A stretch of DNA of 12,326 nucleotides, from IMG/VR virus record IMGVR_UViG_2693429700_000004, one strand, 5' to 3'. Positions 1-12,307 of this stretch are shown piece by piece. How positions within the stretch are numbered: the stretch's first letter is position 1; every line of letters starts with the position of its first letter. A model generated the notes under the pieces. That model saw only the letters and a program-made list of their open reading frames with translations, made no database searches and was not told where the DNA came from. The position numbers were made by a program, and so were the translations under genes. The DNA is from a virus. Taxonomy: Duplodnaviria; Heunggongvirae; Uroviricota; Caudoviricetes.

Positions 1-87
1 CTGTGAGTCATATTCATCCTGACTTTCCAGAACCATACGAATCGCCCGCTGACGGACTTCGGGGGAAAAACGAGTATTTTTAGTCAT
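1..87 (-). CDS. IS3-family transposase OrfA, N-terminal 29 codons only (gene continues beyond the window's left edge)
   Basis: Reverse complement of 1-87 translates MTKNTRFSPEVRQRAIRMVLESQDEYDSQ, which I recognise as the conserved N-terminus of IS3-family orfA HTH proteins. AAGAGG Shine-Dalgarno sits 6-7 nt upstream of the ATG (complement of 85-87). Confidence 0.6.
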   Translation of the reverse strand, partial: MTKNTRFSPEVRQRAIRMVLESQDEYDSQ

Positions 88-162
88 CCTGTTTACCTCT
101 TTCTCAGGGAGTTTAGTCTCCAGGATTTCCGGGGCGGTTCACTCAATTCCATCATAAACTTC

Positions 163-753: not shown

Positions 754-1173
754 TTACTCCGGTGGGGGATTATCTTTAAGCCTGCCTCTCAAATATTTTT
801 CTACATACTCATCGATTTCTTTTAGCCGGACTTCAAATAGCTCAATCATTCGTTGTTGTTCTGAGCCAGGTAGCTGGTTAAACAACTCAAGAAGTTTTCG
901 TTGGGATTCATTTAACCACAATTCAGAAGATTCCTGTTCTCCAAATAGGAGCTCAGGAGGAGATATGCCAAGTGCCTTTCCCAATACGACAGCGTCATGC
1001 ACTCCAACATTTCTGCTGCCCGCCTCATAGTTACCTATACGCGATTGCGTCCATCCGCAGATTTCAGCAAGTTTTCCTTGAGATAAACCAAGCTTCTGCC
1101 TGCGCTCTTTAAGACGCATTGCAATTTTGTCATTGAGCCTACTAGCGGCAATTTTTTCGTTTTCTTTTTCCAT
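754..1173 (-). CDS. racR: XRE/cI-type HTH prophage repressor, RacR-like
   Basis: 139-aa ORF with an HTH (LSQGKLAEICGWTQSRIGNYEAGSRNVG); AAGGA RBS 5 nt upstream of ATG. Transcribed divergently from a Cro-like gene, and synteny matches racR-ydaS-ydaT-ydaU-ydaV of Rac. Gene symbol is by synteny only. Confidence 0.75.
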   Translation of the reverse strand: MEKENEKIAASRLNDKIAMRLKERRQKLGLSQGKLAEICGWTQSRIGNYEAGSRNVGVHDAVVLGKALGISPPELLFGEQESSELWLNESQRKLLELFNQLPGSEQQRMIELFEVRLKEIDEYVEKYLRGRLKDNPPPE

Positions 1174-1269: not shown

Positions 1270-1512
1270 ATGAACAAAATTTCAACATATCGAAAACAGC
1301 TTGGGCTGTCTCAAAGACAACTTGCTGTTCAGTTAGGGTGGATACAAAGCCGACTGGCAAATTACGAAGCAAATTTTCGTACCCCTGGACTAGAGGAGTG
1401 CAGAAAAATTGTTTCTACCCTTAATCGGCTTGGCGCTCATTGTGGACTTGACGATGTATTCCCCCCAGACGGTAAGCATAGCGAAAACAGCATAGGAGCG
1501 GTTGATTCATGA
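1270..1512 (+). CDS. ydaS: Cro-like HTH regulator, YdaS-like
   Basis: 80-aa ORF with an N-terminal HTH (LGLSQRQLAVQLGWIQSRLANYEAN); GGAGG RBS 6 nt upstream. First gene of the rightward operon, divergent from the repressor. Confidence 0.75.
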   Translation: MNKISTYRKQLGLSQRQLAVQLGWIQSRLANYEANFRTPGLEECRKIVSTLNRLGAHCGLDDVFPPDGKHSENSIGAVDS

Positions 1513-1931
1513 AAATCAGGCATGAGCACATCGAATCAGTGTTGTTAGCCCTGGCAGCCGAAAAAGGGCAGGCGTGGGTCGCTAACGCAATTACTGAAGA
1601 ATATCTGCGCCAGGGGGGCGGCGAATTGCCCCTTGTACCAGGCAAGGACTGGAACAATCAGCAGAATATCTATCACCGTTGGTTGAAAGGTGAAACGAAA
1701 GCGCAAAGGGAAAAAATTCAGAAACTGATCCCTGCGGTTCTGGCAATTCTTCCGCGCGAGCTGCGTCACCGACTCTGCATCTTCGATACCCTGGAACGCC
1801 GTGCATTACTGGCGGCGCAGGAAGCGTTGAGTACGGCAATTGATGCGCATGATGATGCAGTCCAGGCCGTTTACCGGAAAGCACATTTCAGCGGTGGTGG
1901 GTCGCCCGGCGATTCTGTCGTAGTGCATTGA
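1509..1931 (+). CDS. ydaT: YdaT-like protein (toxic when derepressed in Rac; proposed CII-like regulator)
   Basis: 140-aa ORF whose start overlaps the upstream stop (ATGA), indicating translational coupling. Size and position match ydaT of Rac. Function is taken from literature on the family, not from the sequence. Confidence 0.7.
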   Translation: MKIRHEHIESVLLALAAEKGQAWVANAITEEYLRQGGGELPLVPGKDWNNQQNIYHRWLKGETKAQREKIQKLIPAVLAILPRELRHRLCIFDTLERRALLAAQEALSTAIDAHDDAVQAVYRKAHFSGGGSPGDSVVVH

Positions 1932-1976: not shown

Positions 1977-2417
1977 GTAACGCTGCGAGCGTTACAAGGT
2001 GAAAACAAATGGCTTCAAACTGGATAAAGCTCGAGGTTATTACGCCGGATAAGCCGGAAATATTCAGGCTTGCTGAGATTCTGAATATTGATCCAGATGC
2101 CGCATTAGGGAAGGTTATTCGCTTCTGGGCATGGGCGGATCAACAAATGATAGACGGTAATGCAGATTGTAACGCTCGCGGCGTTACAAAAAGTGCAATA
2201 GATCGCATCACTTTTATGGCTGGTTTTGCTGATGCGTTAATTCAGGTTGGATGGCTGATCGAAAATGACGGTGGGCTTTCTCTACCTAACTTTGAACGTC
2301 ATAACGGGAAAAGCTCTAAAAAACGGGCGGTTACAAACGAGCGAGTAACAAAAATACGCGAACTGCAACGAAAAGGTAACGCTGCCAGCGTTACACAAAC
2401 GGATCAAAAAGCGTTAC
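1977..2417. repeat. palindromic iteron-like repeats (GTAACGCT-N3-AGCGTTAC) around and inside the initiator gene: candidate origin or autoregulatory sites
   Basis: Copies at 1977-1995 (8-bp arms), 2169-2187 (one mismatch) and 2376-2394 (8-bp arms); a related GTTAC-N10-GTAAC at 2330-2349; a half-site AGCGTTAC at 2410-2417. Confidence 0.5.
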
Positions 2418-2791
2418 CAGAGGAAGAGGAAGATATAAATACTGATCTCCCCCTAAATCCCCCTCGCCAAAAACGAGCGTCTAAAAAATTCGAGCCGGAG
2501 GCTATCGAGCTGCCTGACTGGTTGCCGGAAACACTCTGGCATGAGTGGTTTCAGTTCAGGCAGGCATTGCGAAAACCGATTCGAACGGAGCAGGGCGCTA
2601 ACGGGGCGATACGGGAACTGGAAAAATTCCGTCAGCAGGGTTTTACACCTGAGCAGGTGATTCGACACAGCATCGCCAATGAATACCAGGGCCTGTTCGC
2701 GCCGAAAGGTGTTCGGCCTGAGACGTTGCTCCGACAGGTTAACACCGTCTCGTTGCCGGACAGTGCGATCCCGCCAGGCTTCAGGGGGTAA
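2009..2791 (+). CDS. phage replication initiator, lambda O-like / YdaU-like
   Basis: 260-aa ORF directly upstream of a DnaC-like loader; AAGGTGA RBS. Gene contains the repeated palindromes listed above, as lambda O contains ori. Assignment is by synteny and architecture. Confidence 0.65.
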   Translation: MASNWIKLEVITPDKPEIFRLAEILNIDPDAALGKVIRFWAWADQQMIDGNADCNARGVTKSAIDRITFMAGFADALIQVGWLIENDGGLSLPNFERHNGKSSKKRAVTNERVTKIRELQRKGNAASVTQTDQKALPEEEEDINTDLPLNPPRQKRASKKFEPEAIELPDWLPETLWHEWFQFRQALRKPIRTEQGANGAIRELEKFRQQGFTPEQVIRHSIANEYQGLFAPKGVRPETLLRQVNTVSLPDSAIPPGFRG

Positions 2792-2797
2792 CGGACC

Positions 2798-3544
2798 ATG
2801 AAAAATATTGCGACAGGCGGTGTTCTTGAACGTATCCGTAAGCTGGCTCCGCAGCATGTAACCGCGCCGTACCGGACAGTGGACGAGTGGCGAGAGTGGC
2901 AGCTTGCAGAAGGGCGAAAACGTAGCGAGGAGATCAACCGCCTGAATCGTCAGTTGCGGGTGGAAAAAATTCTGAATCGCTCAGGCATCCAGCCGTTGCA
3001 TCGTAAATGCTCGTTTGCAAATTACCAGGTGCAGAACGACGGCCAGCGATACGCGTTAAGCCAGGCGAAATCCATCGCCGATGAACTGATGACCGGGGGT
3101 ACAAATTTTGCGTTCAGCGGAAAACCTGGTACCGGGAAGAACCACTTAGCGGCAGCTATCGGAAATCGCCTGCTGAAAGATGGCCAGACAGTGATTGTGG
3201 TTACTGTGGCTGATGTTATGAGTGCCCTGCATGCCAGCTATGACGACGGACAGTCAGGCGAAAAATTTTTGCGGGAACTGTGCGAAGTGGATCTGCTGGT
3301 TCTTGATGAGATTGGCATTCAGCGCGAGACGAAAAACGAGCAGGTGGTACTGCACCAGATTATTGATCGACGGACAGCGTCGATGCGTAGCGTGGGAATG
3401 CTGACAAATCTGAACTATGAGGCCATGAAAACATTGCTCGGTGAGCGGATTATGGATCGCATGACCATGAACGGCGGACGCTGGGTGAATTTTAACTGGG
3501 AGAGCTGGCGTCCGAATGTCGTCCAGCCAGGAATTGCGAAGTAA
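2798..3544 (+). CDS. ydaV: DnaC-like replicative helicase loader (AAA+ ATPase; YdaV-like)
   Basis: 248-aa ORF with Walker [16 protein letters not shown] and Walker B-like LLVLDEIG; sits 6 nt after the initiator gene. Confidence 0.85.
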
Positions 3545-3566: not shown

Positions 3567-4328
3567 ATGGAGACTGTTTTTGACGCACTGAAAGCAATGG
3601 GAAAAGCCACATCCATAGAACTTGCTGCGCGACTTGATATCAGTCGTGAAGAGGTACTGAACGAGCTGTGGGAACTGAAAAAAGCTGGTTTTGTTGATAA
3701 AACCGCGTACACCTGGCGCGTGGCTGAAAACAACGTTCAGCAGGAACAGTCAGCGCAGGCAGAACTGCCGGAAGAAACCACCACAGCAACAGTAGCGAAA
3801 ATCTCAGAGTGCGATTTAACCGCAACGATTGAACAACGCGGACCACAAACGGCTGATGAGCTGGCTACATTGTTTGATACCACATCACGCAAAGTGTCTT
3901 CAACGCTGGCAATGGCAATCAGCAAAGGTCGTCTGATTCGCGTAAATCAGGGCGGTAAATTTCGTTACTGCATACCGGGCGATAATTTACCAGCAGAGCC
4001 GAAAGCAGCATCGGTAGCGGAAACTGATGGTAAAGCCTTTCCTCAGCCTGCATGTGTTGCGTTACCAGTACAGGAAGCTGCAACACAGGAAGATATTAAA
4101 ACAGAAACGATGGCGGACATTGTGCAGTCGCTGCCATCGTTTACTGCAACGCGATCTGATGATTTGATTTTGCCATCGCTGCATTTGGCAAACCGCGAAC
4201 TGCGTCGGGCGAAAAATCATGTCCAGAAGTGGGAGCGTGTCTGCGCCGCGCTGCGTGAGTTGAACAAGCACAGGGATATTGTACGACAGATTACTGATTC
4301 TTCCCGCCATGTTGCATCGGAAAAGTGA
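3567..4328 (+). CDS. phage protein with two winged-helix-like segments (function unknown)
   Basis: Start chosen at ATG 3567 ([13 protein letters not shown]...) with GGAGA RBS; the track's upstream start at 3516 would overlap the DnaC-like gene. wHTH-like stretches: [30 protein letters not shown] and [29 protein letters not shown]. Confidence 0.55.
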
Positions 4329-4343
4329 TTGCCGGAGGCGCTT

Positions 4344-4736
4344 ATGGCAAAAGTATTTACACAAGAAGAGCGGGAAGAAGTGAAGGCGCGCATTGTGGAA
4401 TTCGTGCGCCTGAGCGGACGAGAAACTTTTCGACAACTGGCAGATAAAACGGGTGTCAGTAAGACCGCTATTCGTCGTTTATCTGGTGCGCTTGCGGCCA
4501 GTGGTGATGTCTGGCTCTCTGGTTGCGGGGTATTTCCATCAGAGCAGGCGTATCGCGTATGGCGTAAGACACCGGAGAAGGCTGCTGACCCGACACTGAT
4601 TCGAAAGTTACCTGACGGAGAAATACGTCGTTACAACAGACGGCAGAACATAATTTGTCGTGAGTGCCGCCAGAGCGAAGTTATGCAGCGTGTGCTGGCG
4701 TTCTATCGGGGAAACTTTCAGGAGGTGATGTTGTGA
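4344..4736 (+). CDS. hypothetical phage protein with putative HTH
   Basis: ATG at 4344 with GGAGG RBS 5 nt upstream (the track start at 4329 is TTG). HTH-like TFRQLADKTGVSKTAIRRL; C-terminal CRECRQ. Confidence 0.5.
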   Translation: MAKVFTQEEREEVKARIVEFVRLSGRETFRQLADKTGVSKTAIRRLSGALAASGDVWLSGCGVFPSEQAYRVWRKTPEKAADPTLIRKLPDGEIRRYNRRQNIICRECRQSEVMQRVLAFYRGNFQEVML

Positions 4737-5206
4737 GTGAGTCGGCTACCATTCTCGACATGTGCTGTGGCAGTCGCATGTTCTGGTTTGATAAGAATGA
4801 CGAACGGGCGATATTTAGCGATATCAGAAAAGAAGAGCACACATTGTGTGATGGACGACGCCTGATTATCAGTCCTGACCTGATAGCAGATTTTCGAGCA
4901 TTACCATTTGCAGACGCATCGTTTCCGGTTGTTGTATTCGACCCTCCGCATCTTGAGCGTGTTGGTGATAACGCCTGGATGGGAAAGAAATATGGACGGC
5001 TGAATAAAGATACCTGGCGAGATGATTTGCGGCAGGGATTTAAAGAAGCCTTTCGTGTGTTGTGCCCACGCGGCGTTCTGATTTTTAAATGGAATGAAAC
5101 GCAAATACCTGTTCGCCAGATATTGGTACTGACCGACAGAAAACCTGTTATCGGTCAACGAACAGGAAAAAACGATAAAACCCACTGGATTATTTTTATG
5201 AAATAG
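4733..5206 (+). CDS. small SAM-dependent methyltransferase, probable phage orphan DNA N6-adenine/N4-cytosine MTase
   Basis: Motif I-like ILDMCCGSR, then catalytic motif IV DPPH (VVVFDPPHL) about 65 residues later. Start is either GTG 4733 (GGAGGTGA RBS, overlaps upstream stop) or ATG 4763. About 150-158 aa with no partner restriction gene. Confidence 0.6.
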   Translation: MSESATILDMCCGSRMFWFDKNDERAIFSDIRKEEHTLCDGRRLIISPDLIADFRALPFADASFPVVVFDPPHLERVGDNAWMGKKYGRLNKDTWRDDLRQGFKEAFRVLCPRGVLIFKWNETQIPVRQILVLTDRKPVIGQRTGKNDKTHWIIFMK

Positions 5207-5454
5207 GCATCCAGTGAGTAGGTTCGTAAGGTTACAGATGCGTATATCTGAATAATTAAATTCAGTTCTGTAAATAAAATTTAATCCTTAACCGGAGGGA
5301 TTCCTGCACCCTCAGAACATCAGGAGACCGCCCGAAAGGGCGGTAATGAAAAATGGCTGAATGAACCAAATGGCTACAAAACACGATTACCGGAATTGAA
5401 ACGGTAGTAGACGATAAATCGTTTGTATGTGATGAAATAGTATTCAAAATCGAT

Positions 5455-5820
5455 GTGGTTAAAAACGTACTTACCGCATTTAAAGTCGCGCTGGTATCGC
5501 TGGAAGCCGAACCGGTGACATGGCGATATCGCTACGTGAGAAAAGGCGTTACGAACTTTCAGGAGAAGCCGTGGGTTGGTGACTGGAAATATGTACCGAC
5601 AAAAGAGGATTGCAACGACAGGCCGAACTATGAAATTCAGGCGTTATTCACGGCCCAGCCTGTGCCACTGACACCCGAAGGATTGATTAAAGCGGTGCGC
5701 TTCTATGAACAGGTTAAGAGTGAAAATCCGCCAGTCGAAACCGGAGCATGGAAAGACGCTGTTGACTGGGTGCTCAAAGAGGCTTGTCAGGCTGTAAACA
5801 TTGGCATCAAAGGAGAGTGA
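5455..5820 (+). CDS. hypothetical protein (121 aa)
   Basis: ORF with GTG start at 5455 (in-frame stop at 5437 limits extension) and a weak RBS. Protein-like composition; stop sits 1 nt before the next gene's start. Confidence 0.45.
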   Translation: MVKNVLTAFKVALVSLEAEPVTWRYRYVRKGVTNFQEKPWVGDWKYVPTKEDCNDRPNYEIQALFTAQPVPLTPEGLIKAVRFYEQVKSENPPVETGAWKDAVDWVLKEACQAVNIGIKGE

Positions 5821-5821
5821 G

Positions 5822-6013
5822 ATGAACGGACAAATCTCAATTGTTCGACCGGGAGCATGTGACGATTGCGAGATACGAATGATTATTCGTCTGGCGATGG
5901 GGAAAACAATAACTGCTCTCATTACTCCAGAAAATCTCGCATTAGCATTAACAGGAAAGTCAGACCTGCCAGTAGAGCTAAAGCTGCGAAATGTTGAGAT
6001 TAAGGTGAAATAG
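5822..6013 (+). CDS. hypothetical small protein (63 aa)
   Basis: ATG 5822 preceded by AAAGGAGAG RBS (MNGQISIVRPGACDDCEIRM...); tightly packed between neighbours. Confidence 0.45.
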   Translation: MNGQISIVRPGACDDCEIRMIIRLAMGKTITALITPENLALALTGKSDLPVELKLRNVEIKVK

Positions 6014-6015
6014 CT

Positions 6016-7437
6016 ATGACCACTATTACCAAAGAGCGACTGCTGACAATCAAGCAGTGGCGCGAAACATACGGACCTGGTAGCAACGTTGTACTGCCAG
6101 CAGAAGAAGCGGAAGAACTGGCACGGATTGCACTGGCATCATTGGAAGCAGATCCAGTTAAACGAGTTAACTCAGATCAGATGCACCGAGTCTGCTTAGA
6201 AGCTAATCGCTATTTAGATAAATATGACGCGATGGCGAAAGAGGTAAATAAGTTGCTTGGACGCATCGCCCCGCCAGCGCCAGTATTTAACGGCGAATAC
6301 GGTGACGCATATCAGGGCGCTCGTGAAGACCTGTCCATCTGGAAACGGCGAGCGCTTGAAGCTGATGAGCACGTTCGGCGACTGGAGCAAATCAATGACC
6401 ACATGGTGAAAGAGGCGCAGGGAGAATCACGCATGGGCGAGCCTGTAATACGTGAGCCAGCACCGGTAGTGCCTGAAGAAGCAACTCCGGAAAACGTAGA
6501 AATGCTCTCTGGCTATGTTTCAACGTACAAATTAACCGATAGCGAGCGCGATATTGCTGCCGAAATATGGAACGCCTGCCGCGCCGCCATGCTTCAGTCA
6601 GGAAACTTTCGGGAAAACAAGAATTCGTCAACCAATAATTTTCGGGAAATCGAGGAAACGTCAACCAACTATCCGGCAATTCCTAGTGAGGTGTTGTCCG
6701 CAATCCTGAAGGTTGCCAGGATTCGTGCCGATTTCGATGATTTTGACGGTGACAGGCGAGGTATCGGTGATTGTCTGGATGAGGCTGAGCAAGAGCTTAT
6801 CGTTACCATTAACAAATATGCCAGTCAGTTGGCAGCAGAACCGATAGCGACTAATGACGTTCGAGAGCAGCAGACAGCCGTTCCGCCAGTTCCGGAAATA
6901 CAGGCTGATGTCGCGCAAGCAATTGAAAATCTCAAGCAGAAGCTAGTGGAATGTAATCGCTATAACTACTGCGCAGATGCAGTTAAAGGCGTAGAGGATG
7001 CCTGCCGTGCTGTTAGCTATAGCCAAGCCGACAATCAACCAGCATCTGGCAACCAGGCTGCCGAATCCAATCGCGGTAATGAGTGGACCGGCAATCCTGA
7101 TATTGATAACGCCATCATCATGCTCGACCGCATAGATACGCTGGAAAATTGCGATGATGACCGTATTGAGGCTGTTAAGGCTGTTTTGCGTAGACTGGCT
7201 GGCAACTATCCGGTAACTCCGGATGGTTGGATAAGCTGTAGTGAGCGAATGCCGAATACCAAAACAGCCGTTCTTGTTGCCGTGGAGTTTGACAGGAAAG
7301 GTGACTGGCGAATGAAATGGGCTACTTACATCCCGGGGCATCCTGACGCTAATGATGGGTGGATAATTCCTGGTGCGTCGTGGAAACCGTCACACTGGAT
7401 GCCGCTACCAGAACCGCCGCAGGAGGTGCGCCAATGA
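6016..7437 (+). CDS. 473-aa phage protein with C-terminal DUF551-type domain (Ead/Ea22-like region)
   Basis: C-terminus GWISCSERMPNTKTAVLVAVEF...WKPSHWMPLPEPP looks like the DUF551 signature as I recall it. AAGGTGA RBS. Internal imperfect tandem DNA repeat at 6604-6670 encodes NFRENKNSSTN / NFREIEETSTN. Confidence 0.65.
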   Translation: MTTITKERLLTIKQWRETYGPGSNVVLPAEEAEELARIALASLEADPVKRVNSDQMHRVCLEANRYLDKYDAMAKEVNKLLGRIAPPAPVFNGEYGDAYQGAREDLSIWKRRALEADEHVRRLEQINDHMVKEAQGESRMGEPVIREPAPVVPEEATPENVEMLSGYVSTYKLTDSERDIAAEIWNACRAAMLQSGNFRENKNSSTNNFREIEETSTNYPAIPSEVLSAILKVARIRADFDDFDGDRRGIGDCLDEAEQELIVTINKYASQLAAEPIATNDVREQQTAVPPVPEIQADVAQAIENLKQKLVECNRYNYCADAVKGVEDACRAVSYSQADNQPASGNQAAESNRGNEWTGNPDIDNAIIMLDRIDTLENCDDDRIEAVKAVLRRLAGNYPVTPDGWISCSERMPNTKTAVLVAVEFDRKGDWRMKWATYIPGHPDANDGWIIPGASWKPSHWMPLPEPPQEVRQ

Positions 7438-7517
7438 TCTGGCCTGAAGCCTTTGCAATTACAGGCGTTGCTATAGCTATTGATTTTTTAGTATATGTTA
7501 TTTGTCGGTGGGGGTAA
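7434..7517 (+). CDS. unannotated mini-ORF, 27-aa hydrophobic peptide (candidate small membrane protein)
   Basis: ATG overlaps the upstream stop (ATGA) and AGGAGG lies 8 nt upstream; MIWPEAFAITGVAIAIDFLVYVICRWG is one predicted TM helix. Not in the ORF track. Confidence 0.35.
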   Translation: MIWPEAFAITGVAIAIDFLVYVICRWG

Positions 7518-7551
7518 AACGTTCGCCGGGATTCACACCAAAGGAGGGAAT

Positions 7552-7656
7552 ATGTCGGATGATATTTCACTGGCAATGGAAGGTGCGCTGGCTGTTATTG
7601 CTGTTGTGGGCGTTTACTGCCTGGTTGTGTTTTTGATGGATCGACTAGGGAACTGA
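7552..7656 (+). CDS. unannotated mini-ORF, 34-aa hydrophobic peptide (candidate small membrane protein)
   Basis: AAAGGAGGG RBS 6 nt upstream of ATG 7552; MSDDISLAMEGALAVIAVVGVYCLVVFLMDRLGN has an acidic N-terminus then a TM helix. Followed by a perfect 22-bp palindrome at 7665-7686. Confidence 0.4.
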   Translation: MSDDISLAMEGALAVIAVVGVYCLVVFLMDRLGN

Positions 7657-7789
7657 ATTCATTACGATATGGGAATTCCCATATCGGGTAAAAACGGTTT
7701 GCGGTAAAGCGAGAGTTAAGTAGAATTGCTGCGGGTGCTTGAGGCTATCTGCCTCGGGCATGCCACCGTAAGGCAGACAGAGAAAAGCC

Positions 7790-7890
7790 CCAGTTAACAT
7801 TACGCGTCCGGCAAGACGCTTAACATTAATCTGAGGCCATATCTATGCTCTACACACGTAGGTTAGCCTCTTACGGACCGAAAGGTCAAG
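7790..7890 (-). ncRNA. sok: predicted Sok-like antisense RNA region (coordinates approximate)
   Basis: Inferred from hok/mok architecture. Minus-strand TTGACC (complement of 7885-7890) is a possible -35; the mok leader contains hairpins and a direct repeat TTAACATTA. Boundaries are not resolved from sequence. Confidence 0.3.
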
Positions 7891-8051
7891 GAGAAGCAGG
7901 CTATGAAGCAGCAAAAGGCGATGTTAATCGCCCTGATCGTCATCTGTTTAACCGTCATAGTGACGGCACTGGTAACGAGGAAAGACCTCTGCGAGGTACG
8001 AATCCGAACCGGTCAGACGGAGGTCGCTGTCTTCGTAGACTACGAATCTGA
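7845..8051 (+). CDS. mok: Mok-like overlapping reading frame (modulation of killing) of the hok locus
   Basis: 68-aa ORF starting upstream of hok and overlapping it in another frame, the canonical hok/mok arrangement. Confidence 0.55.
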   Translation: MLYTRRLASYGPKGQGEAGYEAAKGDVNRPDRHLFNRHSDGTGNEERPLRGTNPNRSDGGRCLRRLRI

Positions 8052-8058
8052 GAAGTAA
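7903..8058 (+). CDS. hok: Hok/Gef-family type I toxin (HokD/RelF-like), 51 aa
   Basis: Translation MKQQKAMLIALIVICLTVIVTALVTRKDLCEVRIRTGQTEVAVFVDYESEK matches the Hok family as I recall it, nearly identical to HokD/RelF except the C-terminal tail. AAGGAGAAG RBS. Not in the ORF track. Confidence 0.85.
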   Translation: MKQQKAMLIALIVICLTVIVTALVTRKDLCEVRIRTGQTEVAVFVDYESEK

Positions 8059-8617: not shown

Positions 8618-9217
8618 ATGGCGCATATACAACTGGTCAAACAAACCTCTTCCGGATTACTTCTCCCGGCGACACCGGAGAGTTGCGATTTTTTGCATCA
8701 AATCAAAATAGGCGAGTGGATACACGCAGACTTTAAGCGTGTGCGTAACTACGCATTCCACAAGCGTTTTTTCAAACTCCTGCAACTGGGATTCGATTAC
8801 TGGACTCCGGTCGGTGGGGCGATCACGCCTCGCGAACGAGAACTGCTGTCTGGTTTCGTTGATTACCTGTGCGAATCAGTTGGTCGGGAACACACGCCAG
8901 CCCTGAGTGATGCCGCAGAGCAATATCTGAATACAGTTGCGACACGCAGAACCCGGGATACGGCATTGTTAAAGTCGTTTGAGGCTTTTCGCGAGTGGGT
9001 AACCATTCAGGCTGGATTTTACACCGAACATTTTTATCCGGACGGTAGCCATGGGCGTCGGGCGAAATCCATCGCTTTTGCGAATATGGACGAAACCGAG
9101 TTTCAGCAGGTTTATAAATCTGTTCTGAATGTGCTGTGGAACTGGATTCTGTTCCGTAAATTTTCCTCTCCGGAACAAGTCGAAAATGTGGCCGCGCAGC
9201 TGCTGGAGTTTGCGTAA
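8618..9217 (+). CDS. DUF1367-family phage protein (YbcN-like, nin region)
   Basis: 199-aa ORF with GGAGA RBS, immediately upstream of and overlapping a YbcO-like gene, as in the DLP12 ybcN-ybcO arrangement. Family call is from recollection and synteny. Confidence 0.55.
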   Translation: MAHIQLVKQTSSGLLLPATPESCDFLHQIKIGEWIHADFKRVRNYAFHKRFFKLLQLGFDYWTPVGGAITPRERELLSGFVDYLCESVGREHTPALSDAAEQYLNTVATRRTRDTALLKSFEAFREWVTIQAGFYTEHFYPDGSHGRRAKSIAFANMDETEFQQVYKSVLNVLWNWILFRKFSSPEQVENVAAQLLEFA

Positions 9218-9507
9218 TGGTGGATTTACGTAAAGCGGCGCGGGGGCAGATGTGCACCGTCAGAATTCCTGGCTACTGCAATCACGATCCGGAAACGTCT
9301 GTGCTGGCGCATTACCGACTGGCGGGAACGTGCGGAACAGCGATAAAGCCACACGATATGCAGGCAGCGATTGCCTGTAGCTCGTGCCACGATTTAATCG
9401 ACGGGCGGGTAAAAACCGGCGATTACACCAAAGAAGAATTACGCCTGATGCATGCAGAAGGTGTTTTTCGCACACAAGAAATCTGGAGAAAGGAGGGATA
9501 TTTATGA
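9217..9507 (+). CDS. ybcO: DUF1364 / YbcO-like Cys/His-rich putative nuclease
   Basis: 96-aa ORF with spaced Cys/His residues (C13, C21, H23, C54, C57, H58); start overlaps the upstream stop (TAATG). Size and position match ybcO. Confidence 0.6.
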   Translation: MVDLRKAARGQMCTVRIPGYCNHDPETSVLAHYRLAGTCGTAIKPHDMQAAIACSSCHDLIDGRVKTGDYTKEELRLMHAEGVFRTQEIWRKEGYL

Positions 9508-10058
9508 TTTACCCAACGAATACAGGAAAAAGCGGAGAACACCTTCGTCTCACCACGCTGGAAAGTGTCTGGATTCAGGGAAAACTACGTATGTGGGGGC
9601 GCTGGTCGTATATTGGCGGCGGTAAGACGGGAAATATGTTTAACCAGTTGCTGACCTCTAAAAAGCTAACAAAAACGGCAATTAATGAGGCGCTCCGGAG
9701 GATGAAAAAAGCAGGTCTGGACAAACCTGAACTTGAGGCTTTTTTGCGGGATATGATCAACGGCAAGCAAAAAAGCTGGCTGGTGCATTGTACTGATGCA
9801 GAGGCGTTATGCATTGATCGGGTGATTAGTGAAGTGCTGGCAGAACACCCAGGATTGATTTGTATCCTCCGGCAAAGATATGAAGGGCGGGGGATGAGTA
9901 AGCGCAAAATGGCTGAATTGCTAAATGATGCACACCCTGAGTGGTGTTTTCGGACGTGCTGCAGTCGGGTAGATGTATGGCTAAATCTTGCTGAATATAT
10001 GCTCTATCTGCCGATGCGTGATGCATTCTCTTCCGGGTATTTAAAAACTGTCTGTTGA
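9504..10058 (+). CDS. late-gene antitermination protein Q-like
   Basis: ATG 9504 with AGGAGGG RBS (track start 9384 overlaps the previous gene and is unlikely). Last nin gene; a strong promoter overlaps its stop and a short terminated leader follows, the pR'/tR' arrangement. Contains a Cys cluster (CFRTCCS). Assignment is mainly positional. Confidence 0.55.
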   Translation: MIYPTNTGKSGEHLRLTTLESVWIQGKLRMWGRWSYIGGGKTGNMFNQLLTSKKLTKTAINEALRRMKKAGLDKPELEAFLRDMINGKQKSWLVHCTDAEALCIDRVISEVLAEHPGLICILRQRYEGRGMSKRKMAELLNDAHPEWCFRTCCSRVDVWLNLAEYMLYLPMRDAFSSGYLKTVC

Positions 10059-10084
10059 CTCAATCTGTTATCCGGGGCTATATT
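10055..10084 (+). promoter_or_regulatory. pR'-like late promoter
   Basis: TTGACT (10055-10060), 18-bp spacer, TATATT (10079-10084); overlaps the stop codon of the Q-like gene. Confidence 0.45.
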
Positions 10085-10146
10085 CCTCACGCGCCAGCAA
10101 AATCTGGCGTCGGGATTAGGAACCCCGGATAGAGACCGCGACAGAC

Positions 10147-10170
10147 ACACGCCGCGAGCGTGTTTTTTAT
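10147..10170 (+). terminator. tR'-like intrinsic terminator about 80 nt downstream of the late promoter
   Basis: ACACGC-CGCGA-GCGTGT hairpin followed by TTTTTTATT. Confidence 0.55.
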
Positions 10171-10331
10171 TGTCGTATGCACGCGCACATCTGAATTATG
10201 GTGGGGCGTATGGGGGAGCTGAAAAGCTCGCCGGTTGGTTTCCCGGTAGTTCCTAACCCTGTACGTCTCACCACCCGATGATTAGGAACCTGACGGTGGT
10301 GATGGTTTAGAAACCACCAGAGGGCGTCATT

Positions 10332-10913
10332 ATGACAACTCAAATTTCTGTTGAAACTCTCTCCCCGATCACCCATAACCAGATTCCTGTTATTACCACC
10401 GAACTTTTGGCGCAGTTGTACGGTGCTGGAGTTAAGAACATTCAAAATAACTACGCCAGAAATGCTGAGCGCTTTATTGAAGGAAAGCATTTTTTCAAAG
10501 TGGCTGGCGATGCCCTGAAAAATTTGCGGGTAGCTTTAAACTACTCACAAAATTTGCAACCATCTTTAAGAGGGTTACAAATTTCCCCGAAAGCCCGCTC
10601 CCTCATCCTCTGGACAGAACGCGGAGCAGCCCGTCATGCCAAAATGCTGGAAACCGATCAGGCGTGGGATGTGTTCGAAAAGCTGGAAGACTGCTATTTC
10701 AGACAAAAGGATCCGTCAGCGCCAGTTTCATGCCAGAAAAGTTACGACACGCGAGTTCTCTGTTATCAGAGAGGCGGTGTCACTGTTTCCACAATTCAGT
10801 TACGGGATGATGATATTGTTATTTCCCTTGAGTCATGGCTGGAACTGGCGAGAGCCAATGGTTGGTTTGTTGTTCGCAGAGATAAACTGGTGGAAAGGTT
10901 GATGCAGCTTTAA
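10332..10913 (+). CDS. ORF6N-domain (antirepressor-like) protein
   Basis: 193-aa ORF with AGAGGG RBS; N-terminal segment TELLAQLYGAGVKNIQNNYARNAERFIEGKHFFKV resembles the ORF6N/antirepressor N-domain as I recall it. Confidence 0.55.
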   Translation: MTTQISVETLSPITHNQIPVITTELLAQLYGAGVKNIQNNYARNAERFIEGKHFFKVAGDALKNLRVALNYSQNLQPSLRGLQISPKARSLILWTERGAARHAKMLETDQAWDVFEKLEDCYFRQKDPSAPVSCQKSYDTRVLCYQRGGVTVSTIQLRDDDIVISLESWLELARANGWFVVRRDKLVERLMQL

Positions 10914-11489: not shown

Positions 11490-12203
11490 ATGGCTGTTGT
11501 CTGTTCAGTTATCATGGTTTGCTCCCCAATTAATATTTTTCTTGAAAAGGATACGTTGTCACTTAAGCCAGGCTCAGTCGTTCTGGCCACCAAATGCATC
11601 AGGGAGCTTTTCCTTATGCATTATGGCAAAGTTAAAATTGTCGATATAAGCGAATCCGTCGTAAGTCAATATCTGGAAAGTCAGCATAAGCTGACGAGGA
11701 CTCGTCTGACTGACATTCCGCTTTACCTGTTGCTGGAACCCAACAATCCTGCGTTGGCTGCGGCTTTAATTACCAGCCAGGGATTTTCCGGAGAGGTCAC
11801 GGATATGTTTCTTATGATGGCCTGCCTGTCTCTGTTTGAAACAGATGAACGGATGTCATTGTTTTTAAGTGGATGTTTATCCAGCATAAGTGCCAAAGTC
11901 AGGGCGATAATTCAGACAGATATATCAGCAAGCTGGACGCTTGGTGCGATTGCTCTACAGTTGCATATGAGTGAGAGTTTGTTAAAGACAAAACTGAAAA
12001 ATGAAGGGGGCATGTTCAGTCGCTTGTTGCTGGAAGAGCGGATGCGTGTTGCTGTAAATATGTTATGTTCCCGGCATGGATATGGACAGGCTGTAGCAGA
12101 AAAATGCGGTTATTCAAGCAGGTCCTACTTTATTTCTGTATTTCACCGCTATTATGGCTTCCCGCCAGACAGATATGTATCCAGGCAAGGGCTTGATTAT
12201 TGA
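11490..12203 (+). CDS. AraC/XylS-family transcriptional regulator (AppY/YdeO/GadX/PatE-like)
   Basis: 237-aa ORF whose C-terminal HTH region (YGQAVAEKCGYSSRSYFISVFHRYYGFPPDRY) has the AraC signature, and whose N-terminus (MAVVCSVIMVCS) recalls AppY. AT-rich gene and flanks suggest a horizontally acquired moron. Confidence 0.8.
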   Translation: MAVVCSVIMVCSPINIFLEKDTLSLKPGSVVLATKCIRELFLMHYGKVKIVDISESVVSQYLESQHKLTRTRLTDIPLYLLLEPNNPALAAALITSQGFSGEVTDMFLMMACLSLFETDERMSLFLSGCLSSISAKVRAIIQTDISASWTLGAIALQLHMSESLLKTKLKNEGGMFSRLLLEERMRVAVNMLCSRHGYGQAVAEKCGYSSRSYFISVFHRYYGFPPDRYVSRQGLDY

Positions 12204-12231: not shown

Positions 12232-12307
12232 GGCCCTTTAGCTCAGTGGTGAGAGCGAGCGACTCATAATCGCCAGGTCGCTGGTTCAAATCCAGCAAGG
12301 GCCACCA
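12232..12307 (+). tRNA. tRNA with CAU anticodon, ileX/ileY-like (tRNA-Ile2, lysidine) and diverged from the host copies; tRNA-Met not formally excluded
   Basis: 76-nt cloverleaf: acceptor stem GGCCCTT/AAGGGCC, D-loop AGCTCAGTGG, anticodon loop CTCATAA, T-arm GGTTCAAATCC, encoded CCA end. Resembles E. coli ileX/ileY as I recall it, with compensatory stem changes. Confidence 0.85.

Follow-up and report, generated by a model that had tools for sequence, protein, structure and literature searches.

Probable division of a six-gene block in a Rac-type lambdoid prophage of Escherichia coli into a conserved backbone pair and interchangeable cargo

The stretch of viral DNA analysed here (IMG/VR record IMGVR_UViG_2693429700_000004, Caudoviricetes; 12,326 nucleotides, hereafter the window) has the organisation of a Rac-type lambdoid prophage of Escherichia coli, and six open reading frames (ORFs) of its early-right (cro-to-Q) operon, located at 3567-7437 between a helicase loader gene and hok, are the subject of this report. 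The six genes, all on the plus strand, encode a YdaW/DUF1627 family protein (P1), a DUF977 protein (P2), a small methyltransferase (P3), two short proteins (P4 and P5) and a DUF551 protein (P6). A first-pass annotation, made from the sequence alone, delimited this block correctly and read it as a single uncharacterised module in a setting of the kind that houses defence or anti-defence genes. The block is instead probably composite, with (i) P1 and P2 as a conserved backbone pair, followed by (ii) the initial 2.7 kb of a slot for interchangeable cargo, which reaches hok/sok. The region as a whole is an ordinary, well-populated lambdoid mosaic type built from known families; what has been observed directly is its gene content, its mosaicism, the P1-P2 linkage and the behaviour of the slot as a hotspot.

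The six genes do not travel together. Three sets of IMG/VR loci (up to 80 each), anchored on P1, P3 and P6, were searched for all of the window proteins. Among the 80 P1-anchored loci, in which P1 is 91-100% identical, a DUF977 gene is present in 78, mostly as another allele of ~60% identity, and P3, P4, P5 and P6 are found in only 2, 6, 1 and 3 loci, respectively. The 80 methyltransferase-anchored loci include DUF1627 in 16, DUF977 in 15, P4 in 10 and P5 in 5, and each of the other five block genes is present in only one to seven of the 79 P6-anchored loci. Pieces of the block are detected in 4449 of 5426 complete E. coli genomes, with at least 80% of the block in just three of them. As loci of the closest relatives favour the finding of a module, yet co-occurrence is rare, the reading of the block as one module fails.

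A single defence or anti-defence system in which P1 and P2 serve as sensors, P3 as the modification enzyme and P4 to P6 as effectors is largely refuted by this synteny and is regarded as extremely improbable. The genes do lie on the same strand and are tightly packed or overlapping, relatives hold defence systems at this locus, and a methyltransferase beside unknowns superficially resembles a restriction-modification (R-M) or BREX arrangement. Tight packing, however, is the norm of the entire operon and is unspecific to the block, P4 is interrupted by a nonsense codon, P6 is chimeric and rare, and no nuclease, ATPase or other effector domain is detected in P4 to P6 by Pfam, PADLOC or NCBIfam. 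Searched with PADLOC-DB 2.0, the block yields a match to the methyltransferase and to no defence system; P1 and P2 give weak HTH-type noise (E >= 2e-4) and P4 to P6 give nothing. As a defence or anti-defence module, the six-gene block does not merit a dedicated cloning effort.

Of 98 loci, ~93 have a DUF977-type gene directly after P1 (median spacing 1 nt), which makes the P1-P2 pair the only co-inherited unit of the block. On the upstream side of P1, 67 loci encode a DnaC-like loader, 16 encode an alternative replication protein of 348 aa, and others have different genes, such that the pair acts like an add-on to several types of replication module. P1 matches Pfam DUF1627 (PF07789) over residues 88-242 at 9e-95 (315 bits against a cut-off of 28.1) and has weak Pfam matches to HTH_20/MarR/FeoC; the K-12-type ydaW fragment corresponds to P1 residues 1-151 at 95% identity. 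The tandem winged-helix architecture called at first pass is borne out by the AlphaFold2 (AF2) model of P1, which is composed of a winged helix-turn-helix (wHTH) domain (1-51), a linker, a second wHTH domain (80-136), a disordered segment (140-201) and a long C-terminal helix (202-252), with a predicted local distance difference test (pLDDT) score of ~80-89 across the three folded parts. Foldseek comparison of this model to the PDB gives generic winged-helix matches only, none at E <= 0.001. When P1 is used to search genome contigs, 4 loci only are recovered.

P2, described at first pass as a small HTH protein of unknown function, matches Pfam DUF977 (2.7e-42), a winged-helix family (PMC2686095); the fold assignment stands, and the label of unknown does not. 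Three comparisons place P2 as a homologue of lambda Ren: (i) a match to PHROG 142, 'Ren-like exclusion protein' (8.8e-44), (ii) a BLASTP alignment to lambda Ren (J02459 40280-40570) at 4e-9 with 29% identity over 90 aa, and (iii) a C-terminal motif, ECRQSxxMxRVLAxY, common to the two proteins. Sequence searches of the PDB with P2 return weak matches only (E >= 0.1). Like lambda ren, the P2 gene shares its strand and operon with the replication genes and comes after them, in the order O-like, DnaC-like, P1 and P2. Unlike in lambda, which is without P1, the P1 gene separates P2 from the loader; P2 is also longer than Ren (130 versus 96 aa), and lambda Ren itself does not score on Pfam DUF977. 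The backbone is that of the ydaU-ydaV-ydaW region of the K-12 Rac prophage (YdaT-family gene, O-like gene, DnaC-like ydaV and DUF1627 ydaW). By contrast to the full-length P1 of the window, the ydaW of K-12 Rac is a truncated remnant, and the cargo downstream of it is different.

The lambda ren gene is transcribed with O and P and is 'likely involved in DNA replication', and both Ren and O interact with the Rex proteins (bioRxiv 10.1101/2021.04.19.439022). P1 and P2 could similarly act as replication accessory or regulatory factors of the Rac-type module (e.g., associated with the origin or the loader) instead of in counter-defence, an explanation that is given appreciable weight, if somewhat short of even. 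It is consistent with the location of the pair, which is always directly after the replication genes, and with the winged-helix nature of both proteins. The pair remains constant, however, while the upstream initiator and loader types change, which argues against one specific partner. Furthermore, lambda ren is dispensable for replication. An overexpression screen (bioRxiv 10.1101/2020.06.22.160242) lists K-12 ydaW among the genes that block the retron toxin RcaT, a listing that speaks against a purely replicative role and is only a hint as to the role of P1. As the sole conserved unit of the block, P1-P2 joins two poorly understood proteins (Ren and YdaW) with hints of counter-exclusion.

Downstream of the conserved pair, the locus is hypervariable. 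Among 54 loci with both borders, in all of which P1 is at least 91% identical, the slot extending from after DUF977 to hok/DUF1367/Q spans 1.2-5.7 kb and contains 29 distinct gene sets, the cargo combination of the window being seen once. The right flank (hok or DUF1367/Q) is conserved in related loci. The cargo of relatives includes: (i) IetA (9e-143) and IetS (3e-300), found in L020, L021, L033, L039, L040 and L053, (ii) HEC-06/GmrSD (4e-221) with a TPR protein, found in L011 and L026, (iii) a 752-aa NACHT NTPase, found in L071, and (iv) QueH, DUF4406, several small acidic proteins and a minus-strand KilA-N gene (L074). At ~12100-14500 of L008, L014 and L016, the slot is occupied by a trio of an adenosine deaminase that resembles the deaminase of CARF-ADA proteins (3e-36), a HAM1-family nucleoside triphosphate pyrophosphatase and a ThsA-like SIR2 protein (9e-32). 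By these sequence likenesses, the trio looks like an undescribed defence candidate that may deplete nucleotides or nicotinamide adenine dinucleotide (NAD).

The slot qualifies as an accessory hotspot: its flanks are conserved, its content is hypervariable, and known defence systems are among its occupants in some relatives. The occupant in the window is without a recognised defence system. The observations of the first-pass annotation are largely correct but its module reading is not supported, and the view of a defence or anti-defence setting is partly supported: it holds for the locus, which carries IetAS, GmrSD/HEC-06, NACHT or SIR2 in relatives, and not for the present occupant. Accessory hotspots of this kind are known for P2 and P4 elements (PMC9122126; bioRxiv 10.1101/2022.05.12.491691). 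The slot is similar to the hotspots of P2-like phages and P4-like satellites (Rousset et al. 2022, PMC9122126; Vassallo et al. 2022) in its conserved flanks around hypervariable content and in the different known defence systems found from relative to relative. It differs in the type of phage (lambdoid), in its position between a ren-like gene and hok/nin/Q, and in its cargo, much of which is on the early lytic strand with no evident promoter of its own. The ren-like-gene-to-hok/Q slot of Rac-type prophages can be mined for cargo in other genomes, with the junction element described below as a handle.

The boundaries at which cargo is exchanged appear to be marked by a short conserved sequence. 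The 248-nt 'gap' between P3 and P4 (5207-5454) contains a junction element of ~125 nt whose last part, a hairpin (GCCGCCC-GAAA-GGGCGGT), is separated from the next start codon by a few nt. Conservation of the element stops a few nt past this GC hairpin with its GAAA loop, at the point where diverse start codons begin. The 244 fetched loci include 70 with the element, for a total of 84 copies (one to three per locus), all in the plus (gene) orientation, which follow DUF977, the methyltransferase or other cargo and directly precede many different genes. The element is also widespread, at 2419 places in 1543 of the 5426 complete E. coli genomes (~28%) and in 21 phage records that include the Rac, mEp460 and Stx2a phages. 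We read it as a leader or linker whose homology would permit the exchange of cassettes and which may also furnish a context for the start of translation. One of the prophage Pas sRNAs, reported to lie near DUF1627 genes, is a further possible identity of the element. Boundary sequences have long been seen as part of lambdoid mosaicism, and the junction element fits that picture. A structured RNA gene was considered for this element and rejected, as it has no Rfam match, a fold z-score of -1.8 and no covariation, with compensatory changes in none of 20 predicted pairs across 32 sequences.

The first of the cargo proteins, P3, is indeed the compact methyltransferase noted at first pass, with matches to the PADLOC models MTase_II (1e-72) and oMTase (2e-49) and to PHROG 954, 'DNA methyltransferase' (5e-86); NCBIfam gives only weak HTH and methyltransferase matches for the window proteins. 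The acidic residues predicted to bind S-adenosylmethionine (SAM), D9 and D30, and the D70-P71-P72-H73 motif are invariant across 72 diverse relatives. Since DPPH is a signature of the methylation of exocyclic amino groups of nucleobases, P3 is assigned to the class I SAM amino-methyltransferases, having both the SAM motifs of this class and a catalytic motif of the form (D/N/S)PP(Y/F/W/H). Among the neighbours of P3, no nuclease, ATPase or PADLOC match is detected by Pfam, PADLOC or NCBIfam, and hence no R-M partner, and these neighbours change from locus to locus across the 80 methyltransferase-anchored loci; thus, P3 is considered an orphan. Within a library clustered at 50% identity, its family has 2024 representative relatives (E <= 1e-3). 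The family is found at 34-66% identity in 254 phage records of many phyla, which range from phages of Streptococcus, Vibrio, Acinetobacter, Listeria and Gordonia to a haloarchaeal virus. The retention of a very small methyltransferase across many phyla makes this family of interest. YfdM of K-12 was examined as a counterpart of P3 and rejected, since YfdM to YfdT of CPS-53 have no match to any window protein at 1e-3; YfdM is a methyltransferase different from P3.

Phage orphan methyltransferases (e.g., the Dam-type enzymes of T4 or phage P1) protect phage DNA from restriction. P3 resembles the phage orphan DNA methyltransferases in being solitary, in its intact SAM-binding and DPPH motifs and in its matches to the orphan and type II models of PADLOC. 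It differs from the Dam-type enzymes of T4 and phage P1 in belonging to another family, not of the Dam-like fold, and in its small size of ~157 aa with no recognisable target-recognition domain. This size leads to the suggestion that P3, P4 and P5 (~4751-6035) form a functional unit in which P4 and P5 are accessory to the methyltransferase (e.g., in target recognition). In accordance with such a unit, PHROG 11564 fuses a methyltransferase N-terminal half to a P5-like C-terminus, and two backbones, the Rac type and the yfdQRS type (L100, L101 and L118), have in common a contiguous stretch of 1285 bp (window 4751-6035, methyltransferase to P5; 97.5% identity). In the yfdQRS-type prophages, the stretch follows yfdQ-, yfdR- and yfdS-like genes, a different backbone on the other genome arm. 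The low counts of P4 and P5 in the methyltransferase-anchored loci (10 and 5 of 80) speak against the unit, however, as do other loci (L111 and L119) that diverge inside P4, the nonsense mutation of P4 beside an intact methyltransferase in the window, and the occurrence of the methyltransferase family alone in phages of Firmicutes, Actinobacteria, Bacteroidetes and archaea. A functional dependence of P3 on P4 and P5 is, therefore, held to be improbable, although the three genes may constitute a small sub-module of the cargo.

Of the two small unknowns reported at first pass, both ORFs exist, but P4 is a nonsense-truncated remnant of a 155-aa gene. An intact orthologue of 155 aa, starting MAELTKW, is encoded in L100, and P4 is likewise intact in L101 and L118. 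The window retains the ancestral ATG at 5353 and has TGA in place of TTA at codon 4 (5362-5364), in frame with the annotated GTG start at 5455, which has no obvious Shine-Dalgarno (SD) site. The match of P4 to PHROG 660 starts at profile position 33, and an Ead-like protein of 243 aa (cluster c310) ends in the same 52 residues as P4. The truncated, 121-aa P4 is nevertheless common, its exact sequence being found on 426 contigs. P5 matches PHROG 1222 (9e-41) and has no match in Pfam, NCBIfam or PADLOC; its exact sequence is present on 944 contigs and is labelled MULTISPECIES.

P6 is of the DUF551 type, as had been noted, with a Pfam DUF551 (PF04448) match confined to residues 404-469 (1.3e-20, 74.5 bits against a cut-off of 22), and it is also a patchwork, a recently assembled multi-module chimera. 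Twelve partial PHROG matches lie along its length, and mosaic breakpoints recur near residues 44-48, 148, 216, 293 and 332 in a map of high-scoring segment pairs. The exact 473-aa protein occurs on 6 contigs only; a commoner relative (87 contigs) is a 314-aa protein composed of P6 residues 1-292 and a truncated DUF551. P6 is acidic (isoelectric point 4.7), and a sequence search of the PDB finds no relative. The NCBI Prokaryotic Genome Annotation Pipeline (PGAP) annotates P6 as three pseudogene fragments, which qualifies its earlier description as a 473-aa protein.

By sequence, P4, P5 and P6 may be placed only within the Ead/DUF551 mosaic gene pool. P4 and P6 share just short boxes and the C-terminal module with Ead-like ORFs, and neither has a Pfam Ead_Ea22 match at E <= 0.01. 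The Ead/Ea22 and DUF551 proteins of the exo-xis region of lambda and Stx phages are similar in that the C-terminus of P6 is a DUF551 and that N-terminal and junction boxes are common to these proteins, P4 and P6; Ea22 variants have been described as modular, acidic and mosaic (PMC10834534), which is also true here. Differences from the Ead/Ea22 proteins include the location of P4 and P6 on the replication/Q side instead of between exo and xis, and the much greater length of P6 compared to Ea22. Ea22, the best-studied member of the pool, biases towards lysogeny (PMC10834534). Full-length paralogy of P4 and P6 was also considered and rejected, as pairwise comparison gives short shared boxes only.

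The state of P4 and P6 raises the question of whether P4, P5 and P6 are decaying, non-functional debris of a defective prophage, with selection acting only on the methyltransferase and P1-P2. Besides the nonsense codon in P4, the PGAP call of P6 as pseudogene fragments and the rarity of exact P6, the IS1203 copies that flank and interrupt the prophage and the several other pseudogenes present point in this direction, and from these insertions and pseudogenes the prophage is probably defective. P6 is, however, uninterrupted over 473 codons, an outcome of ~1e-10 by chance ((61/64)^473, own arithmetic), exact P5 is kept on hundreds of contigs (944, as above), and each of the P5 and P6 starts is preceded by an SD site and coupled to the stop of the gene before it. 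Decay of all three genes is, thus, viewed as unlikely.

The division of the block into a backbone pair and exchangeable cargo is accompanied by a proposed mechanism, in which the biochemical roles of all block proteins are predictions. Independent cassettes would be swapped by recombination at short conserved junctions and inside homologous gene boxes. By a consensus scan of the block, promoter-like and terminator-like signals do not exceed the level of shuffled sequence (9 promoter-like sites versus 8.0±2.8 in shuffles); since no internal promoter exceeds chance and the genes are translationally coupled, the block is likely transcribed from pR upon induction, and expression from pR favours functions that serve the phage in lytic growth over protection of the lysogen. 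P1 and P2 may be DNA-binding early proteins that act with or around replication or in escape from exclusion, P2 in a Ren-like role (lambda Ren protects against Rex exclusion) and P1 as its DNA-binding partner. P3 would methylate the replicating DNA of its own phage during lytic growth, such that progeny escape restriction in the next host, a role suggested by analogy to the established function of phage orphan methyltransferases. P3, the Ren homologue P2 and the YdaW-family P1 may plausibly contribute to counter-defence. A bolder and rather doubtful extension is that P1-P2 is a dedicated early counter-exclusion unit of Rac-type phages, followed by a plug-in site where the ~125-nt leader supplies both the context of translation starts and the homology through which defence and counter-defence genes are exchanged between the nin and exo-xis sides of unrelated lambdoid prophages.

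Several points weigh against the composite reading and the roles attached to it. The loci are the best 80 IMG/VR matches per anchor, not a random sample, and their ORFs were clustered on the plus strand only, such that minus-strand cargo (e.g., the KilA-N gene of L074) is under-described. In a few loci, the methyltransferase, P4 and P5 genes do move together. Promoters were scanned for by consensus matching, a crude approach, and internal promoters active in the lysogen may exist. For P3, the AF2 model (built with 38 close homologues) has a mean pLDDT of 50 and is too poor to use, so that of the structural checks proposed at first pass only that of P1 gave a usable (winged-helix) model; no solved relative of P3 is identified, a PDB search with P3 alone giving E >= 0.8 and one with the 72-sequence profile giving marginal matches only (best PH0226 at 4e-5). 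Finally, the retron-blocker result for ydaW comes from overexpression of a truncated protein.

The chromosome of E. coli Z1323CEC0019 (NZ_CP148401.1) contains a prophage that is 99.95% identical to the window, and the public annotation of this chromosome has the same six ORF calls. Every gene from cro onward is on the plus strand (Table 1). The close spacing and overlaps of the six ORFs, which had been described at first pass, and the SD sites are read directly from the sequence: P1 starts with ATG 3567 preceded by GGGAG, P2 with ATG 4344 (GGAGG 5 nt upstream), P3 with GTG 4733 (GGAGG 7 nt upstream) in an overlap with the P2 stop (GTGA), P5 with ATG 5822 at 1 nt past the P4 stop, and P6 with ATG 6016 at 2 nt past the P5 stop. 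The helicase loader is a backbone gene outside the six-gene block. The block had been considered a nin-equivalent region that lacks the usual ninB, ninG and rusA genes. No NinB, NinG or RusA family match is found in 3567-7437, in agreement with that description, but the block is not the equivalent of nin: since the DUF1367 and YbcO genes lie downstream of hok, it is an insert that separates the replication genes from the nin equivalents, and it does not take the place of nin.

Table 1. Coordinates of the block, its flanking genes and related features (window positions unless a locus is named)
Feature	Coordinates	Strand	Annotation or match
cI-like repressor	754-1173	-	
cro-like gene	1270-1512	+	
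YdaT-family gene, cII position	1509-1931	+	annotated 'toxin YdaT family protein'
O-like initiator	2009-2791	+	
DnaC/YdaV-type helicase loader, left flank	2798-3544	+	Pfam IstB_IS21 5.6e-20; PHROG 50 1e-84; annotated ydaV
P1, YdaW/DUF1627 family, 253 aa	3567-4328	+	
P2, DUF977, 130 aa	4344-4736	+	
P3, methyltransferase, 157 aa	4733-5206	+	
Junction element, non-coding	5246-5370	+	
P4, annotated 121 aa	5455-5820 (ancestral ORF 5353-5820)	+	
P5, 63 aa	5822-6013	+	
P6, DUF551 protein, 473 aa	6016-7437	+	
Hydrophobic ORF, 34 aa	7552-7656	+	
sok RNA region	7733-7905	+	Rfam sok 105 bits, E 1.6e-23
hok	7903-8058	+	annotated Hok/Gef family protein
DUF1367 gene	8618-9217	+	PHROG 319 label NinB/Orf-like
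YbcO nuclease	9217-9507	+	
DUF1133 Q-like gene	9504-10058	+	
Deaminase/HAM1/SIR2 trio, examples in related loci	L016:12129-13154, L014:13154-13705, L014:13708-14499		

Further features of the prophage lie on either side of the block. Window positions 1-141 correspond to a segment of the prophage's own IS1203 copy, in an orientation inverted relative to NZ_CP148401.1. The YdaT-family gene is present together with P1 in 75 of 80 loci. Between P6 and sok, a strongly hydrophobic 34-aa ORF, MSDDISLAMEGALAVIAVVGVYCLVVFLMDRLGN, accompanies P6-type genes in several loci and could be a small membrane peptide. Two single-base indels between NZ_CP148401.1 and the window are placed in 7438-7903 from coordinate and frame offsets; these shift the frame of the annotation of the 34-aa ORF and leave the mok-like ORF (7845-8051) of the window out of frame with hok, while mok and hok of L001, the matching genome, form one reading frame.

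Downstream of the Q-like gene, Rfam identifies a c4-a1b1 target (10078-10131), isrK (10091-10168) and the C4 antisense RNA (10194-10278), and this C4/isrK RNA cluster is immediately upstream of an ORF6N/antirepressor-like gene (10332-10913). The 10078-10913 segment is, thus, an antisense-controlled antirepressor unit of the phage P1/P7 type or Gifsy-1 IsrK type. Further downstream lie the gene of an AraC-like HTH protein (11490-12203) and, after it, a tRNA gene (12232-12304), which in L001 is the first of a four-gene cluster (Ile, Lys, Thr and Gly) that precedes the lysis genes, as in Stx-type phages.

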